This document shows positions 3,377-39,968 of a stretch of 39,968 nt of DNA, one piece after another. Location: the sequence record OQ680138.1. One strand, written 5' to 3'. Below the pieces are notes generated by a model that was not told the origin of the DNA, did not search any database, and saw only the letters and a program-made list of their open reading frames with translations. The stretch's first letter is position 1, and each line of letters starts with the position of its first letter. The stretch is from Escherichia phage PH1061. Position numbers and translations under genes: made by a program.

Positions 3377-3399
3377 CCTAAACTATCACTATAGGATTA
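3377..3399 (+). promoter_or_regulatory. Phage RNAP promoter (phi1.1-like), CTAAACTATCACTATAGGA, +1 near 3394
   Basis: Consensus match. Confidence 0.8.
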
Positions 3400-3404
3400 G
3401 ACTC

Positions 3405-3431
3405 AAGGTCATGACTCAAAGTCGTGGCCTT
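3405..3431 (+). promoter_or_regulatory. RNase III-type processing hairpin (R1.1-like): 11-bp stem AAGGUCAUGAC / GUCGUGGCCUU, 5-nt loop
   Basis: Stem-loop read from sequence; paralogous to hairpins at 11404 and 34622 with compensatory changes; position matches T7 R1.1. Confidence 0.65.
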
Positions 3432-3473
3432 CATGATTAACCCTATAACCTAAACAACTGGAGATTTAACCAC

Positions 3474-18941: not shown

Positions 18942-18964
18942 ACTAAACTATCACTATAGGGAGA
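18942..18964 (+). promoter_or_regulatory. Phage RNAP promoter (phi10-like, strongest consensus), CTAAACTATCACTATAGGGAGA, followed by a 5' leader stem-loop
   Basis: Full consensus including GGGAGA start; leader GGGAGACC...GGUUUCCC stem-loop resembles the T7 phi10 leader. Confidence 0.9.
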
Positions 18965-20234: not shown

Positions 20235-20240
20235 TTGAAA

Positions 20241-20277
20241 CCCCTTGGGTGCCTTCGGGTGCTTGAGGGGTTTTTTT
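20241..20277 (+). terminator. Tphi-like late terminator: CCCCUUGGGUGCCUUCGGGUGCUUGAGGGG followed by UUUUUUU
   Basis: Close resemblance to T7 Tphi (AACCCCTTGGGGCCTCTAAACGGGTCTTGAGGGGTTTTTTG) and same position after gene 10. Confidence 0.9.
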
Positions 20278-20298: not shown

Positions 20299-20865
20299 AT
20301 GGCTCAATACATTCCACTGAATACTAACGATGACTTAGACGCCATCAACGATATGTTAGCAGCTATCGGTGAACCAGCAGTCCTACAGCTTGATGAAGGC
20401 AACGCTGATGTTTCGAACGCACAACGTATCCTGCATCGTGTCAATCGTCAGGTCCAAGCTAAAGGCTGGAACTTTAATATCAACGAAGCTGCTGTCCTGA
20501 CACCTGATGTCCAAGACAAGAGGATTCGATTCTTGCCGTCATACCTTCGTGTAATGACCGCTGGGGCCACCAGCTACTACAGCAACATGGGTGGATACCT
20601 GTATGACCTATCCACTCAGTCAACCACTTTCACCGACCCTATCACGGTAGAGCTTGTGGAGATGAAGCCATTCTCCGAGATGCCTGTGGTCTTCAGGGAC
20701 TACATCGTCACTAAAGCTAGCCGTGAGTTCAACGCTAAGTTCTTCGGTAGCCCAGAGTCAGAGCTATACCTTCGTGAGCAGGAAGCAGAACTCTATCAGC
20801 AGGTTATGGAGTACGAGATGGACACTGGTCGCTACAACATGATGTCTGACATCGGGAGGGACTAA
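20299..20865 (+). CDS. 11: Tail tubular protein A, 188 aa
   Basis: Size and position of T7 gp11; RBS GAGAGGAG. Confidence 0.88.
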   Translation: MAQYIPLNTNDDLDAINDMLAAIGEPAVLQLDEGNADVSNAQRILHRVNRQVQAKGWNFNINEAAVLTPDVQDKRIRFLPSYLRVMTAGATSYYSNMGGYLYDLSTQSTTFTDPITVELVEMKPFSEMPVVFRDYIVTKASREFNAKFFGSPESELYLREQEAELYQQVMEYEMDTGRYNMMSDIGRD

Positions 20866-21092
20866 TGGCTAGTCACAACCTGAAGATTCACCGCCGGCAC
20901 TTTGGTCCGGTACAGCTAGGTATAAAGACAGCAGAGCTGAGACTTAACGACCGGGACTTTAAGGTTGGCGATTGGCTTATCCTGAATGAGTGGGACAACG
21001 GGTATACTGGACAACAGGTAGCGCGTAAGGTTATCCACATTGCTGACGTTGGTGACATCGCTGAAGGATACGTCCTAATGAGTATGATTTAA
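20865..21092 (+). CDS. Small ASCH/PUA-like (DUF3850-type) protein, 75 aa, inserted between tail tubular genes 11 and 12
   Basis: Pattern HNLKIH..HFGPVQLGIKTAELRLNDRDFKVGDWLILNEWD...EGYVLMSM fits DUF3850 as recalled; ATGA-type overlap with the gene 11 stop. Confidence 0.6.
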   Translation: MASHNLKIHRRHFGPVQLGIKTAELRLNDRDFKVGDWLILNEWDNGYTGQQVARKVIHIADVGDIAEGYVLMSMI

Positions 21093-21101
21093 GGAGGGCC
21101 T

Positions 21102-23459
21102 ATGCCACTAATTACTCAATCAATCAAGAACCTTAAAGGTGGCATTAGCCAGCAGCCTGATATACTGAGGTTCTCAGACCAAGGCGAGGCACAGGTTAAC
21201 TGCTGGTCATCCGAGAGTGATGGCCTCCAGAAGCGCCCACCTACAGTCTTCAAGCGACGTCTTAACATCGACGTTGGTAGCAACCCTAAGTTCCACCTGA
21301 TTAACCGTGACGAGCATGAGCAGTATTACATCGTGTTCAATGGGTCCAACATTCAGGTAGTTGACTTGAGTGGTAATCAATACTCAGTGTCCGGTGCGGT
21401 AGACTACGTTAAGTCCTCCAACCCGCGAGATGACATCCGTGTCGTTACCGTGGCAGACTATACGTTCGTCGTTAACCGTAAGGTTGTCGTCAAAGGTGGA
21501 AGCGAGAAGTCACACTCTGGTTATAACCGCAAAGCACGAGCTTTAATTAACCTGCGTGGTGGACAGTATGGTCGAACCCTTAAGGTGGGAATCAACGGTG
21601 GCGTTAAGGTATCGCATAAGCTACCAGCAGGTAATGATGCCGAGAATGACCCGCCTAAGGTGGACGCTCAAGCCATTGGTGCAGCTCTGAGAGACCTTCT
21701 TGTTCAGGCCTATCCTGACTTCACGTTCGACCTTGGGTCTGGCTTCCTGCTAATCACAGCTCCTTCAGGGACCGACATTAACTCAGTGGAGACGGAGGAT
21801 GGCTACGCTAACCAGCTAATAAGCCCAGTCCTAGACACTGTGCAGACAATCTCTAAACTACCTCTTGCCGCTCCTAATGGGTATATCATTAAGATTCAAG
21901 GTGAGACAAACAGTAGCGCCGATGAATACTACGTGATATATGACTCCAACACTAAGACGTGGAAGGAGACAGTGGAGCCTGGAGTTGTCACTGGGTTCGA
22001 TGTCACCACAATGCCACATGCTCTGGTCAGACAGTCTGATGGCTCCTTTGAGTTCAAGACTCTGGATTGGTCCAAGCGTGGTGCTGGTAACGATGACACA
22101 AACCCTATGCCTAGCTTCGTGGATGCTACGATTAACGATGTGTTCTTCTACAGGAACAGACTTGGGTTCTTGTCGGGTGAGAACGTAATCATGAGCCGTT
22201 CAGCCAGCTACTTTGCGTTCTTCCCTAAGAGTGTGGCGACACTGAGTGATGATGACCCTATTGATGTAGCTGTAAGTAACCCTCGAATCTCAATCCTTAA
22301 GTATGCCGTTCCGTTTAGCGAGCAGCTACTACTTTGGTCGGATGAGGTTCAGTTCGTGATGACAAGCTCTGGGGTACTTACCTCGAAGTCTATCCAGCTT
22401 GATGTGGGCTCAGAGTTTGCCCTAGGTGACAATGCCAGACCGTTCGCTGTAGGACGCTCAGTCTTCTTCTCAGCTCCTCGTGGGTCATTCACCAGTATTA
22501 AGCGATACTTCGCTGTAGCTGATGTGTCTGATGTGAAGGATGCAGATGATACAACTGGTCACGTACTGTCCTACATCCCTAACGGGGTGTTTGATATTCA
22601 AGGTACAGGGACTGAGAACTACATCTGCGTCAACTCTACAGGTGCATACAACCATATCTACATCTACAAGTTCTTGTTTAAGGACGGCGTACAGCTTCAA
22701 GCCTCTTGGTCACACTGGGAGTTCCCTAAAGATGATAAGATTCTGGCGTCTGCTTCTATTGGCTCTACCATGTTCATCGTTCGTCAGCACCAAGGAGGGG
22801 TAGACATTGAGCACCTTAAGTTCATCAAGGAGGCAACTGACTTCCCGTCAGAGCCATATAGACTACACATTGACTCCAAGGTGTCTATGGTAATTCCAAT
22901 TGGCTCATATAATGATGACACCTATAAGACTACGGTTGACATTGGTGCTGCTTATGGCGGCAACGCTCCGTCTCCCGGTCGGTACTATCTGATTGACAGT
23001 CAGGGTGCTTATGTGGACCTTGGGTACTTGACCAGTATCTCTACTGTGGTTAGCCTCAACGGCGATTGGTCAGGACGCACAGTGTTCATCGGACGCTCCT
23101 ATCTGATGTCCTACAAGTTCTCACGGTTCCTGATTAAGATTGAAGATGATAGTGGAGCTAAGTCTGAAGACACTGGTCGTCTACAGCTTCGTCGGGCTTG
23201 GGTAAACTACAAAGACACTGGCGCTCTGAGGCTCATTGTCAGAAACGGTGAGCGGGAGTTCGTGAACACCTTCAACGGGTACACCCTTGGTCAGCAGGCA
23301 ATTGGGACTACAAACATTGGGGATGGACAGTATCGCTTCGCTATGAACGGTAACGCATTAACCACGAGTCTAACCTTAGAGTCCGACTATCCTACCCCAG
23401 TGTCAATCGTTGGGTGTGGCTGGGAGGCGTCATACGCTAAGAAAGCTCGTTCCGTCTAA
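21102..23459 (+). CDS. 12: Tail tubular protein B, 785 aa
   Basis: Size and position of T7 gp12 (794 aa); RBS AAGGAGGG. Confidence 0.92.
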   Translation: MPLITQSIKNLKGGISQQPDILRFSDQGEAQVNCWSSESDGLQKRPPTVFKRRLNIDVGSNPKFHLINRDEHEQYYIVFNGSNIQVVDLSGNQYSVSGAVDYVKSSNPRDDIRVVTVADYTFVVNRKVVVKGGSEKSHSGYNRKARALINLRGGQYGRTLKVGINGGVKVSHKLPAGNDAENDPPKVDAQAIGAALRDLLVQAYPDFTFDLGSGFLLITAPSGTDINSVETEDGYANQLISPVLDTVQTISKLPLAAPNGYIIKIQGETNSSADEYYVIYDSNTKTWKETVEPGVVTGFDVTTMPHALVRQSDGSFEFKTLDWSKRGAGNDDTNPMPSFVDATINDVFFYRNRLGFLSGENVIMSRSASYFAFFPKSVATLSDDDPIDVAVSNPRISILKYAVPFSEQLLLWSDEVQFVMTSSGVLTSKSIQLDVGSEFALGDNARPFAVGRSVFFSAPRGSFTSIKRYFAVADVSDVKDADDTTGHVLSYIPNGVFDIQGTGTENYICVNSTGAYNHIYIYKFLFKDGVQLQASWSHWEFPKDDKILASASIGSTMFIVRQHQGGVDIEHLKFIKEATDFPSEPYRLHIDSKVSMVIPIGSYNDDTYKTTVDIGAAYGGNAPSPGRYYLIDSQGAYVDLGYLTSISTVVSLNGDWSGRTVFIGRSYLMSYKFSRFLIKIEDDSGAKSEDTGRLQLRRAWVNYKDTGALRLIVRNGEREFVNTFNGYTLGQQAIGTTNIGDGQYRFAMNGNALTTSLTLESDYPTPVSIVGCGWEASYAKKARSV

Positions 23460-23483: not shown

Positions 23484-23506
23484 CCTTAACTATCACTATA
23501 GGGACT
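23484..23506 (+). promoter_or_regulatory. Phage RNAP promoter (phi13-like), CCTTAACTATCACTATAGGGA
   Basis: Consensus match. Confidence 0.85.
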
Positions 23507-24006: not shown

Positions 24007-24578
24007 GTATCGGCATGGGTATCATGGCTGTAGCAGGGGCCACTATGTCCGCATCACAACAGGCCAAGGCCGAAGGTGCAGCAATTGACGCTCAGAACCG
24101 ACAGGCTCAGGAAATGGTTAAGCAGATGAACTACTCTGACGCCAACCTGAGGATGCAGGAGCGAGACCTGAAGGAGCAGCAGATGGCTGAACTGACAGAG
24201 ACCACGCTAAACGGTATCCGCAATCAGGGTATGGTACGAGCTGCGGTGGCTGAGTCAGGTCTGGAAGGTAACTCTATGGACAGGATTGAACGTCAGGTCG
24301 AAGGAGATACAGTCAAGGAGCGAGCAGGGATTACCGAAAGTTACAACCGCGACTATGCGGCTATCTTCGGGAACCGTATCACCAACATTGAGAACACCAA
24401 GTCTGCTATCCGTGGTCAGGGTAAAATCATCAGGACCAGCCCACTGGCTCATGCACTTAATGTTGCTAGCGCCGGGATGCAGGGATATGCTGCTGGTAAG
24501 TCAATATCCGGGGCAACAAGCTCTGGTGATGCTGCACCTATTAGTGCTGCTAAAGGCACACCTACAGGCCATAGCTAA
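23991..24578 (+). CDS. 14: Internal virion protein B (gp14-like), 195 aa
   Basis: N-terminus begins MC... as in T7 gp14; near-identical length to T7 gp14 (196 aa). Confidence 0.85.
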   Translation: MCEPVSIGMGIMAVAGATMSASQQAKAEGAAIDAQNRQAQEMVKQMNYSDANLRMQERDLKEQQMAELTETTLNGIRNQGMVRAAVAESGLEGNSMDRIERQVEGDTVKERAGITESYNRDYAAIFGNRITNIENTKSAIRGQGKIIRTSPLAHALNVASAGMQGYAAGKSISGATSSGDAAPISAAKGTPTGHS

Positions 24579-24589
24579 GAGGAGGACTA

Positions 24590-26872
24590 ATGGCTAGTAA
24601 TATTGAATCAGCTCTGGCTAATCGGACTATGGGTCGCGGCAGAGCGCCGGGTAAAACTATCGCTGTCAACTATCAAGCAGCCAGCATTCAGGCTCCGACT
24701 GGTGACTCCGGTCTGGCTCGTGCATTAACCAACTTCGTTGAGTCTGGGACTGGATTATACAAGCAGTTCAAAGACGAGGAGAAGACACGGGCCGACGAGC
24801 GGTCTAACGAGATTATCCGTAAGTTGACACCTCAGCAGAGACGTGAGGCTATCCAGAACGGCACATTGCTGTATCAGGATGACCCTTACGCTATGGAAGC
24901 ACTTCGAGTCAAGACTGGTCGTAATGCTGCCTTTGCTGTAGACGACGAGATTAACGTTAAGATTCAGAACGGTGAGTTCCGCACACGTCAGGAAATGGAA
25001 GAATATCGCCACCAGCGACTTCAGGATGCCGCTAAGTCCTATGCTGAAGAGGCGGGTATTAACCCTACCGATGAGTTCTTCCAGCGCGGGTTCAACGATA
25101 ACATCACTGACCGCAACATCGCTATCTATGGGTCCTTCAATAAGTATTTCAGTAAGCAGTCTGAAGAGACAGCAATGTTGAATACTCGTATTGAGATGAA
25201 CTCATTCCTGAACGATGGCGACCTGATGCGCTCACCTGAGTCCGGTAAGACCTTCATGGCCTACCTTCGTGATGGACTGACTACTGCTGCTATTCCTTCG
25301 GACCAGCGAGCACGGGAGGTCATTACCCAGACGGTCCGTGACGCAATCCAGAAGTCCGGCGGCTCAAACTTCCTACAGCAAGTACGAGGTGAGCGAATCA
25401 CCCTTAACGGTGTGGATGCTACAGTCGAAGAGATTGTAGGACCGGATGTCTTCAACGCTGCCATTGTTGAGGCACAAGGCACTGAGTACAAGCTGGTGGC
25501 TAAGTATCAGGAAGACTTGGCGTTAGGCGTTCAGTCTGCGATTCTTCAGGATGACCCGACCATAGGGCTGGCCCAGATTCAGAAACTCAAGGAGCAGAAC
25601 AACCTGCTTCAGCCGGGTGAAGAACTCACGCCTCAGCGTCAGATGCTTATTAATGCCGAAGCCAGCTTACTGGAAGCGGTCAAGCGGAAGTCTGCTGAAC
25701 AGGCGAAGGAGAACACTAAGTTAATCCAGACTCAGAACAAGCAACTGGTCATTGACCAAGTGTATCAGCGACGTCTGGCTGGGGATAACGTGTCCACCAA
25801 CTATGAGGACCTTCCGGTCTCAGATGCTACAGGCGAGTTCAAGCGTTCTGACATGAACAACTATGCGTCTGCCAAGCTACAGCAGATTGACCAGATGGAC
25901 ATTCCTGAGGCTGCTAAAGACGCTCAGAAGGTGGCATTGTTAAGAGCTGACACTAACAACGGTCCGTTCCGTAATGCCTTCCAGACGCTGACTCAGGACG
26001 CTGCTGGTGAGTGGCAATCTGCGGTAATCCGTGGACAGTACGACCCAGACAAGATGCAACGCTTCGAATCTCTTCGTCGGGCCTACACTCAGGACCCTTC
26101 AAGTTTTGCTGCTCTGTATCCTGACCAAGCCCAGTTGTTCTCTACGTTCGACCAGATGGACAAGATGGGTCTGGACCCTCAGACGATGATTGAAGCTGAT
26201 AAACAAGCTGCAAGTCAAAGCCGTGAGATGCGCATGGAGTCAGACAAGGCGTGGCAGGAGTTGAAGAACGACTCTCGGAATAAGGACCTTTCGCGTCTTC
26301 CTACGTCTCTGGACTCAAGTGCTCGTAAGGTCTGGGACTCATGGTACTATCGTACAGGTAACGCTGACGCTGCCACTCAGCAGACTCAACGCTGGCTGAA
26401 TGAGAACACCGTAACGTTCCAGTCTGAAGGTTCTGACGGTAAGTCCATCGGCATGGTGTCCAAGCACCAGCTTATGGTCGGGGATAACCCAGAGTCGTGG
26501 CAGGTTGGTCGAGACATTATCGACACCGCTCGTAAGCAGCTCATTAAGGCCAACCCTTGGGTAGTGAACTCTCAGTTGTCCGTTGTTGAACAGAACGGCT
26601 CTATCTTCCTCCAAGACGCTACAGGGACTATTCGTATTCGCTACGATAAAGAACTTGTAGGTAAACTCTACCGCGAACAACAGCAGAAGGCACAAGATGC
26701 CGCATACGCTCAGGCAGAACGTGACGCTAACAAGAGAGCGCGTATCGTCGGGACTAAAGCTGCTGGTGACAAACGTCGAGCTGACCGAGAGGCCAACATC
26801 GAGAAGCGCGGAGGGATGTACAATGACGTCTCATTGGAGGGTATCGCAAACGTACTAATCGGTAAGGAGTAA
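24590..26872 (+). CDS. 15: Internal virion protein C (gp15-like), 760 aa
   Basis: Size and position of T7 gp15 (747 aa); RBS GAGGAGG. Confidence 0.88.
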   Translation: MASNIESALANRTMGRGRAPGKTIAVNYQAASIQAPTGDSGLARALTNFVESGTGLYKQFKDEEKTRADERSNEIIRKLTPQQRREAIQNGTLLYQDDPYAMEALRVKTGRNAAFAVDDEINVKIQNGEFRTRQEMEEYRHQRLQDAAKSYAEEAGINPTDEFFQRGFNDNITDRNIAIYGSFNKYFSKQSEETAMLNTRIEMNSFLNDGDLMRSPESGKTFMAYLRDGLTTAAIPSDQRAREVITQTVRDAIQKSGGSNFLQQVRGERITLNGVDATVEEIVGPDVFNAAIVEAQGTEYKLVAKYQEDLALGVQSAILQDDPTIGLAQIQKLKEQNNLLQPGEELTPQRQMLINAEASLLEAVKRKSAEQAKENTKLIQTQNKQLVIDQVYQRRLAGDNVSTNYEDLPVSDATGEFKRSDMNNYASAKLQQIDQMDIPEAAKDAQKVALLRADTNNGPFRNAFQTLTQDAAGEWQSAVIRGQYDPDKMQRFESLRRAYTQDPSSFAALYPDQAQLFSTFDQMDKMGLDPQTMIEADKQAASQSREMRMESDKAWQELKNDSRNKDLSRLPTSLDSSARKVWDSWYYRTGNADAATQQTQRWLNENTVTFQSEGSDGKSIGMVSKHQLMVGDNPESWQVGRDIIDTARKQLIKANPWVVNSQLSVVEQNGSIFLQDATGTIRIRYDKELVGKLYREQQQKAQDAAYAQAERDANKRARIVGTKAAGDKRRADREANIEKRGGMYNDVSLEGIANVLIGKE

Positions 26873-26876
26873 CATA

Positions 26877-27326
26877 ATGAAGAACGGGACAGCCAGTGAG
26901 AGACTGGCAGAACTGTCAGTAACCGAAGAGTCTGGCTGTATCCGCTTCACCGGAAGCATTGAGAAGTCCGGTTATGGAAGGATAATGATTAATAGGGTAA
27001 AATATGGAGCGCATAGACTTGCTTACGAGCTTGCTAATGGTCCTATACCCGATGGGTACGTTGTTCGCCATAAATGCGACAACCCGTCCTGTATAAACCC
27101 AAGCCACCTTGAAGTTGGCACACAAGCTGACAACATAAAGGATAAGGTGACTAGAGGTCGCCAAGCATCAGGATGCTCCATAGGAGTATCTAAGCTCACT
27201 GAGGAAATTGTGAGAGACATAAGGTCCAGCGACCTAAAGGTTTCACTCTTGGCGGAACGATATGGAGTGAGTACGGTTTCTATTAGAAATATATTGAGGA
27301 GAAAGACATGGCAACACGTGGTGTAA
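26877..27326 (+). CDS. HNH homing endonuclease (family B), 149 aa, inserted between genes 15 and 16
   Basis: Motif RHKCDNPSCINPSHLEVGTQADN; paralog of 8049..8420; lower GC. Confidence 0.8.
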   Translation: MKNGTASERLAELSVTEESGCIRFTGSIEKSGYGRIMINRVKYGAHRLAYELANGPIPDGYVVRHKCDNPSCINPSHLEVGTQADNIKDKVTRGRQASGCSIGVSKLTEEIVRDIRSSDLKVSLLAERYGVSTVSIRNILRRKTWQHVV

Positions 27327-34610: not shown

Positions 34611-34621
34611 GTGTTAGACTC

Positions 34622-34648
34622 AAGGTCATTACTATATGTAGTGGCCTT
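34622..34648 (+). promoter_or_regulatory. RNase III-type processing hairpin (R18.5-like): 11-bp stem AAGGUCAUUAC / GUAGUGGCCUU
   Basis: Third paralog of the conserved hairpin family; position matches T7 R18.5. Confidence 0.65.
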
Positions 34649-34711
34649 TATGGTTAACACTAACTAGTGGAGTAGACTCTACGTGAAATCTGATAAACCG
34701 GGAGGGCAACT

Positions 34712-39582: not shown

Positions 39583-39908
39583 TGAGTAAATCTTATGGCA
39601 TCAACTTGGTCCATGCATTTGACGCAGACCTTAATCTGCTTTCAGCACTAGCTACAGGCTACCGTCACGGGACCTCAAGTCACACCATTCGTCAACAGCA
39701 GGAGCGTGACCGTGTACTACAGGCACGACTACGGGCCGAGGGACATAAGGCCGAGCTGATGTGTCTGGCGTATGGTGGACGACCAATCACCGACGATGGT
39801 AAACTTCTGGTCTCAGGCTGGAAGGCGATAGACCAACGGTCAACCATCAAGCACACGACTCATGGTGACTTCAGTCATCTTCACGCTAACCCACTGATAT
39901 GCAAGTAA
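39582..39908 (+). CDS. Hypothetical early protein, 108 aa, at the position of T7 gene 0.7; no protein-kinase motifs
   Basis: TAATG coupling with the previous ORF; the 3' end is duplicated at window positions 1..51. Confidence 0.6.
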   Translation: MSKSYGINLVHAFDADLNLLSALATGYRHGTSSHTIRQQQERDRVLQARLRAEGHKAELMCLAYGGRPITDDGKLLVSGWKAIDQRSTIKHTTHGDFSHLHANPLICK

Positions 39909-39913
39909 TTCTG

Positions 39914-39936
39914 ACTTAACTATCACTATAGGACTC
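39914..39936 (+). promoter_or_regulatory. Phage RNAP promoter upstream of the RNAP gene (same element as 57..79)
   Basis: TTAACTATCACTATAGGA. Confidence 0.7.
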
Positions 39937-39968
39937 AAGGTCTAAGACTCCAAGTGAAAGACCAAAGA

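Follow-up and report, generated by a model that had tools for sequence, protein, structure and literature searches.

In the window, by which we mean the whole 39,968-nucleotide stretch of Escherichia phage PH1061 DNA that was analysed (OQ680138.1), an open reading frame at positions 20865..21092 of the plus strand lies between two tail genes: gene 11 (20299..20865, +), which encodes tail tubular protein A (Pfam Tube/T7 gp11, E=4.4e-46), and gene 12 (21102..23459, +), which encodes tail tubular protein B, or nozzle (Pfam Phage_nozzle/T7 gp12, E=0). Gene 13 (gp13) was located downstream of gene 12 by Pfam search. The intervening frame starts with ATG and, according to the ORF listing, specifies a protein of 75 aa and 8.6 kDa, with a pI of 6.9 and a net charge of 0; it is the orthologue of gene 11.05 of Citrobacter phage CR44b and encodes a minimal stand-alone ASCH (PUA-like) beta-barrel of the DUF3850 type. 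The original prediction, which was made from the sequence of this DNA, had placed a 75-aa frame at this site, between two genes that adjoin each other in T7. Both statements were confirmed: the coordinates, start and length agree with the ORF listing, and T7 genes 11 and 12 (24228-24818 and 24842-27226) are separated by only a 23-nt spacer. The phage itself is a K1F-like podovirus of the T7 group; the best match to its gene 11-12 segment was found in Escherichia phage pO91 (98.8% identity), and its relatives are Kayfunavirus phages.

The frame is preceded by a Shine-Dalgarno sequence, GGGAGGG, at 20854-20860 (+), so placed that the RBS and ATG together occupy 20854..20867, and its ATG shares one base with the TAA stop codon of gene 11 (TAATG, 20863-20867), an overlap which implies that the frame would be translationally coupled to gene 11. 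At the opposite end, the Shine-Dalgarno sequence of gene 12, AAGGAGGG, and the gene 12 ATG (together 21091..21104, +) overlap the stop codon of the frame. Each of the two RBS and ATG elements contains one copy of an imperfect direct repeat, GGAGGGACTAATG at 20855-20867 (+) for the upstream copy and GGAGGGCCTATG at 21093-21104 (+) for the downstream one.

A Tphi-like intrinsic terminator with a 17-bp stem and a T run (20237..20274, +) is situated between genes 10 and 11, and gene 11, the frame and gene 12 are all downstream of it. T7 has the same layout, with Tphi on one side of its genes 11 and 12 and the phi13 promoter on the other. Upstream of the frame, the closest phage promoter from which it could be transcribed, by read-through of Tphi, is the phi10 equivalent at 18942..18964 (+), which has the perfect consensus and matches the phi10 annotated in CR44b; the next phage-RNAP promoter, the phi13 equivalent, lies downstream of gene 12 (23484..23506, +), and a promoter-site scan found no phage promoter between Tphi and the frame. 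From this arrangement we infer that the frame would be transcribed late, together with genes 11 and 12. In the window as a whole, there are twelve phage-RNAP promoter-like 23-mers on the plus strand, at positions 57, 3377, 5412, 6392, 9413, 15129, 17954, 18942, 23484, 31692, 37016 and 39914, which match the promoters annotated in CR44b and have the consensus ACTAAACTATCACTATAGGGAGA; of these, the one at 18942, ahead of gene 10, matches perfectly.

The frame is a genuine gene and goes beyond a chance reading frame, because it is carried intact in the same slot by about 160 phage records, shows dN/dS values of 0.14-0.23 against distant orthologues and has a strong Pfam match. Two antisense frames at 20888-21058 and 20916-21038 were considered and found to be without support. 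Rfam and tRNA scans of the window found nothing, which argues that no RNA element is hidden in the gene, and a search for foreign base composition gave no signal (GC of 0.482 vs 0.49 in the flanks, with similar GC3).

Domain family, fold and conserved site

The protein had been said to fit a DUF3850/ASCH-like pattern, and an HMM search agreed with this reading, both Pfam models scoring above threshold: DUF3850 (PF12961) scored 69.1 bits where 22.9 are required (E=3.8e-19), the match running from position 2 to position 76 of the 77-position model, and ASCH (PF04266, a member of the PUA clan) scored 28.4 bits where 21.2 are required (E=2.8e-6). Also, PHROG 986, which is named "RNA-binding protein", matched the protein at 3.8e-35; NCBIfam gave nothing useful for it. 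By sequence, the sole relative with a solved structure is 3IUW (E=2.2e-10; a profile search gave 6.6e-21), the 'activating signal cointegrator' NP_814290.1 of Enterococcus faecalis V583, which is an unpublished JCSG structural-genomics entry assigned to Pfam DUF3850. The 3IUW gene is bacterial, from a chromosome or a prophage, whereas the gene described here lies in the tail operon of a lytic phage.

Structure prediction, which had been proposed as a further check, led to the same family. Of two AlphaFold models, the first, from 18 sequences, had a pLDDT of 84.5, and the second, from 62 sequences, reached a pLDDT of 97.4 and a pTM of 0.82; the predicted protein has the 3IUW fold by which DUF3850 membership can be judged. 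Its elements are arranged in the order beta1 (residues 3-9), alpha1 (10-18), beta2 (23-27), beta3 (37-43), a long beta4/5 hairpin (47-61) and beta6 (69-74). In structure comparisons ASCH-family structures outscored every tail protein, and the BFVD model of CR44b 11.05 gave a TM of 0.92. Family and fold membership are shown by these results, and the stand-alone DUF3850 domain represents the smallest version of the ASCH/PUA-like beta-barrel.

In an exhaustive profile search at E<=1e-3, we observed that the DUF3850 family comprises 16,961 clusters at 50% identity and is thus very large. Among 156 diverse family representatives, clustered at 50% identity, 11 positions were conserved in at least 94% (H4, K7, K21, E24, R26, N28, D29, R30, D36, E42 and G49), and the window protein retains every one of them. 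In its beta2 region, the segment G19-I-K21-T-A-E24-L-R26 fits GxKxxExR, the ASCH signature reportedly described by Iyer and colleagues in 2006. The same motif has been termed a conserved octapeptide (PMC9599836), and hhalign aligned it to G19-R-K21-T-I-T24-I-R26 of Escherichia coli YqfB. YqfB and ZmASCH of Zymomonas, the prokaryotic ASCH proteins that have been characterized biochemically, have the beta-barrel fold and the conserved Lys/Arg of the beta2 motif in common with the phage protein. Catalysis by YqfB, an ac4C amidohydrolase, involves Thr24 as nucleophile and Glu74 as acid, along with Lys21 and Arg26 (PMC9599836); ZmASCH, a Mg-dependent ssRNA nuclease, has a continuous positively charged cleft and the residues Tyr47, Lys53 and Ser128 (PMC5615036). 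The basic cleft of ZmASCH is formed partly by surrounding helices, but the phage protein lacks those helices, is half the size and has no net positive charge. The family as a whole is a neutral to acidic domain, with a median pI of 6.1 vs 6.9 here. This neutral charge slightly favours a small-ligand pocket or an enzyme over a binder of bulk polyanions, and nucleic-acid binding is still compatible with it. Among 39 longer family members, the fusion partners were sporadic matches to LexA, HTH, ParB_N and zinc-ribbon domains, which offer a weak functional clue.

There was one feature of the locus, the presence of such a domain inside a tail-gene operon, that had been described as unexpected, and the surroundings of the family elsewhere bear this out. 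In 80 loci from IMG/VR, the order Tube - DUF3850 - nozzle was found only in those of Kayfunavirus type. When the nearest large neighbours were tallied for about 60 non-redundant loci of other phages, they included the P2-type gpA nickase (7), several helicase and primase families, DnaC-like loaders, D12 (Dam) and N6_N4 DNA methyltransferases, NinB, endonuclease VII (EndoVII) and an Erf/Rad52-type annealing protein, and no structural families appeared among the top neighbour lists of these loci. Position in a tail operon is atypical for DUF3850, which other phage loci place beside replication, recombination or methylase genes. For example, P2 Orf91 (L003, 3486-3815), long left unassigned, is a DUF3850 protein that is 41% identical to the window protein, and its gene follows replication gene A directly and adjoins the tin/old defence hotspot. 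Erwinia phage Midgardsormr38 carries a DUF3850 gene in its nin region. ParB-CTPase-DUF3850 fusions were found in a 2025 survey to be enriched in prophages and to adjoin parA consistently, and one such fusion binds CTP; TnSmu1 smu_194c is another example beside these fusions. Orf91, the DUF3850 proteins of lambdoid, T1-like and Webervirus siphophages and the prophage fusions all have the same domain, at 41-63% identity, yet they are found beside replication genes (P2 gpA), in nin regions or, as ParB fusions, adjoining parA, which is an early or middle DNA-metabolism context and not a late structural operon as here. Judging by such surroundings, a role in DNA or nucleotide transactions is at least as likely as one involving RNA.

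The gene has already been deposited and annotated many times, as CR44b gene 11.05, as "DUF3850 domain-containing protein", as "activating signal cointegrator" and as "RNA-binding protein". The last of these labels, which has spread widely, stems from a superfamily prediction of 2006 and is without experimental basis for DUF3850, and the literature on DUF3850, phage ASCH proteins, anti-defence, and Kayfunavirus proteomics and RNA-seq contained no functional or expression data for the gene. What is added here is the atypical position, the boundaries of a cassette together with its natural knock-outs, the exclusion of a YqfB-type mechanism and the finding that the functional label is unsupported; the annotation is thus tidied to a genuine DUF3850/ASCH protein that is not a tail part.

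The optional cassette and its divergence

Alignment of the window with K1F and CR44b defined a 237-bp segment, 20868..21104 (equivalently 20865-21101), that is cleanly absent from K1F and from other Kayfunavirus genomes. The segment is bounded by the two copies of the imperfect direct repeat, each corresponding to an RBS and ATG, and in K1F, the type phage, the stop codon of gene 11 and the start codon of gene 12 are found at the same TAATG. Where the cassette is present, as in CR44b (HG818823) and about 160 Kayfunavirus-type CDSs, the gene 11 - X - gene 12 slot is identical. The pO91 product is 100% identical to the window protein; the CR44b product shares only 47% of its residues and no longer has K7 and N28-D29-R30, and the other slot orthologues are 64-100% identical with the motif intact.

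A query with the K1F junction returned 40 records at 80% or more query coverage. Among the matches listed, most consisted of one uninterrupted match, the cassette being absent, and a minority were in two pieces spanning 398 bp, the cassette being present. The uninterrupted junctions were those of K1F, 216Ecol046PP, PhiNW-B1, LNA3, YZ1, ZG49, IME177, vB_EcoP-R1, BUCT788, Zappy, Salmonella ST0223 and others, and from this sampled list of junction matches we estimate that roughly 30 records are without the gene. Examination of all six reading frames of K1F and YZ1 found no DUF3850 elsewhere in either genome. The gene is dispensable, as viable plaque-forming phages with the same gp11 and gp12 exist without it, and the viability of K1F, YZ1 and the like argues that the protein is not needed for tail building. 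The cassette is therefore an optional accessory insert at the gene 11/gene 12 junction in most Kayfunavirus phages. Among the genomes that lack it, those with junction flanks 93-97% identical to the flanks of genomes that bear it would most likely be cases of secondary loss. A third junction state was observed in Enterobacter phage EcL30g (H112) and Escherichia phage RDN8.1 (H113), in which the match to the K1F-type junction (77-79% identity) extends over 173 bp in place of 161 bp and contains some 12 additional bases.

Kayfunavirus phages with and without the clean 237-bp cassette amount to natural isogenic-like pairs in a lytic coliphage that is easily engineered, and are a convenient system for learning the function of DUF3850. 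Members of the family occur in phages, prophages and ICEs; one structure has been solved, and the polar site is strikingly conserved.

Orthologues in the same slot were 83% (L016), 67% (P0027) and 47% (CR44b) identical to the window protein. In the comparison with L016, the gene showed a dN of 0.13 and a dS of 0.92 (dN/dS 0.14), gp11 a dS of 0.83 (dN/dS 0.03) and gp12 a dS of 1.62 (dN/dS 0.13). In the comparison with CR44b, the gene showed a dN of 0.49 and a dN/dS of 0.23, and the dN/dS values of gp11 and gp12 were 0.10 and 0.13. By these estimates the gene is under purifying selection, looser than that on gp11, and has co-diverged with its flanks. Since its dS against L016 is close to that of gp11, the gene must have persisted for a long time. 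Yet a dN/dS above that of gp11 (0.03-0.10), taken together with repeated loss or exchange, suggests that any benefit to the phage is conditional at best.

In several pairs of close relatives the dS of the gene was far below that of gp11 and gp12, and we considered nucleotide-level constraint within the frame. This was rejected, because mosaic divergent patches in genes 11 and 12, which were recognized in a sliding-window identity profile, explain the contrast, and the frame itself is not unusually conserved. One patch of gene 11, at 20524-20748, has 79-88% nucleotide identity to L009 and L013, compared with 93-99% for the adjacent frame and the start of gene 12, a contrast which points to recombination breakpoints within the tail genes.

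The 11.05 gene of CR44b (L002, 3001-3225) is a singleton allele in which, besides the loss of K7 and N28-D29-R30, E24 is replaced by D, and the frame is intact. Such an allele may have begun to decay, or it may have been repurposed. That the frame has stayed open despite these losses suggests that the pocket is perhaps dispensable at times in this slot.

Proposed role and alternatives

We regard it as probable, with some reserve, that the gene encodes a late-expressed, cytoplasmic and dispensable accessory protein, whose polar pocket binds a base or nucleotide, much as PUA-like readers do, and possibly hydrolyses it. As the sequence layout suggests, late transcription of the cassette, along with genes 11 and 12, would come from Tphi read-through, and the frame would be translated in coupling with gene 11. 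The protein would then act outside the tail, as a small binder or hydrolase in the infected cytoplasm. Its pocket, composed of H4, K7, K21, E24, R26, N28-D29-R30, D36 and E42, would hold the base or nucleotide, either on its own or as part of a nucleic acid from which it has been flipped out, as happens in other PUA-like domains. Between DNA or a nucleotide and RNA as the substrate, the genomic surroundings of the family in other phages favour the former.

Two other readings are unlikely but are the best of the alternatives. One of them, which we consider rather doubtful, is counter-defence, in which the protein would bind, sequester or hydrolyse a modified nucleotide or base (e.g., m6-dAMP set free as the phage breaks down Dam-methylated host DNA) and so blunt host sensors of the PUA/ASCH clan; in a variant that we judge just as doubtful, it would do so by masking a modified site on nucleic acid. 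Metis and PUA-Cal-HAD use PUA/ASCH-clan domains to detect the m6-dAMP that phage-driven degradation of the genome produces, and Metis restricts T7, which is without the gene described here. Polymorphism for presence and the divergence of alleles at a single slot are what arms-race accessory genes typically show, the small, neutral domain and its conserved polar pocket would suit such a role, and DUF3850 sometimes adjoins DNA methyltransferases in other phages. However, expression with the late genes would be late relative to a signal made during class II host-DNA breakdown. PADLOC gave no significant match, the literature contained no link between DUF3850 and anti-defence, and the antagonists so far known for PUA-Cal-HAD act as DNA mimics. 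The abundance of DUF3850 in temperate elements weakens this reading further. If the role did prove to be modified-nucleotide sensing or counter-defence, the gene would be tied to the recently described PUA-based immune sensors.

The other, to which we attach a similarly low likelihood, is that the gene is a functionless passenger, a decaying or selfish remnant that is kept solely for carrying the RBS of gene 12. It is dispensable and often absent, its dN/dS exceeds those of its neighbours, and the motif is degraded in the CR44b allele. Against this, the gene is intact in about 160 records and keeps all 11 family-invariant residues, its dN/dS of 0.14-0.23 at saturating dS indicates purifying selection, and its orthologues have co-diverged with their flanks (dS of 0.92 vs 0.83 for gp11 in L016).

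A broader proposal appears very improbable to us, namely that stand-alone DUF3850 proteins form a widespread and unrecognised class of phage proteins that read or erase modified nucleotides, and that here such a protein decoys Metis or PUA-Cal-HAD by means of the same fold. If this were true, a protein of 8.6 kDa would capture or hydrolyse a modified mononucleotide or base, such as the m6-dAMP left by breakdown of Dam-methylated host DNA, and would thereby silence the host sensors.

Position in the tail operon suggests a tail or virion-associated protein, or a chaperone for gp11/gp12 assembly, a reading to which we give scarcely any credence. It was rejected on presence and absence, given that the gene is missing from K1F, YZ1, roughly 30 more records of Kayfunavirus and T7, all of which make the same tail from gp11 and gp12; moreover, the family is otherwise found in replication modules, and ASCH-family structures rank above any tail protein. 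The CR44b record flags gp8, 9, 10A, 11, 12 and 14 as detected by virion mass spectrometry and does not flag 11.05, a weak argument, as gp13 is also unflagged, and the study of phage B1 detected neither gp11 nor gp12. The gene product is not a tail component. Least credible of all is a YqfB/EOLA1-type N4-acetylcytidine amidohydrolase acting in pyrimidine salvage, which was rejected on its catalytic residues: K21 and R26 are present, but the nucleophile Thr24 is replaced by Glu24 (Glu in 96% of the family), the helical segment with the catalytic acid Glu74 is missing from the 75-aa protein, and the DUF3850-specific N-D-R, H4 and E42 are absent from YqfB.

Other features of the genome

The window begins just upstream of the RNA polymerase gene, and its positions 1-111 are 100% identical, over 111 bp, to positions 39858-39968. 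It represents one circularly permuted genome unit of 39,857 bp, so the 111-bp overlap is an assembly overlap and not a physical terminal repeat. Also, we observed a 49-nt direct repeat (84% identity) at 3397-3445 and 34614-34662. Both copies form long hairpins with an internal loop (z of -5.4 and -4.7, respectively), with compensatory changes in the upper stem, and these hairpins resemble RNase III processing sites of the T7 type.
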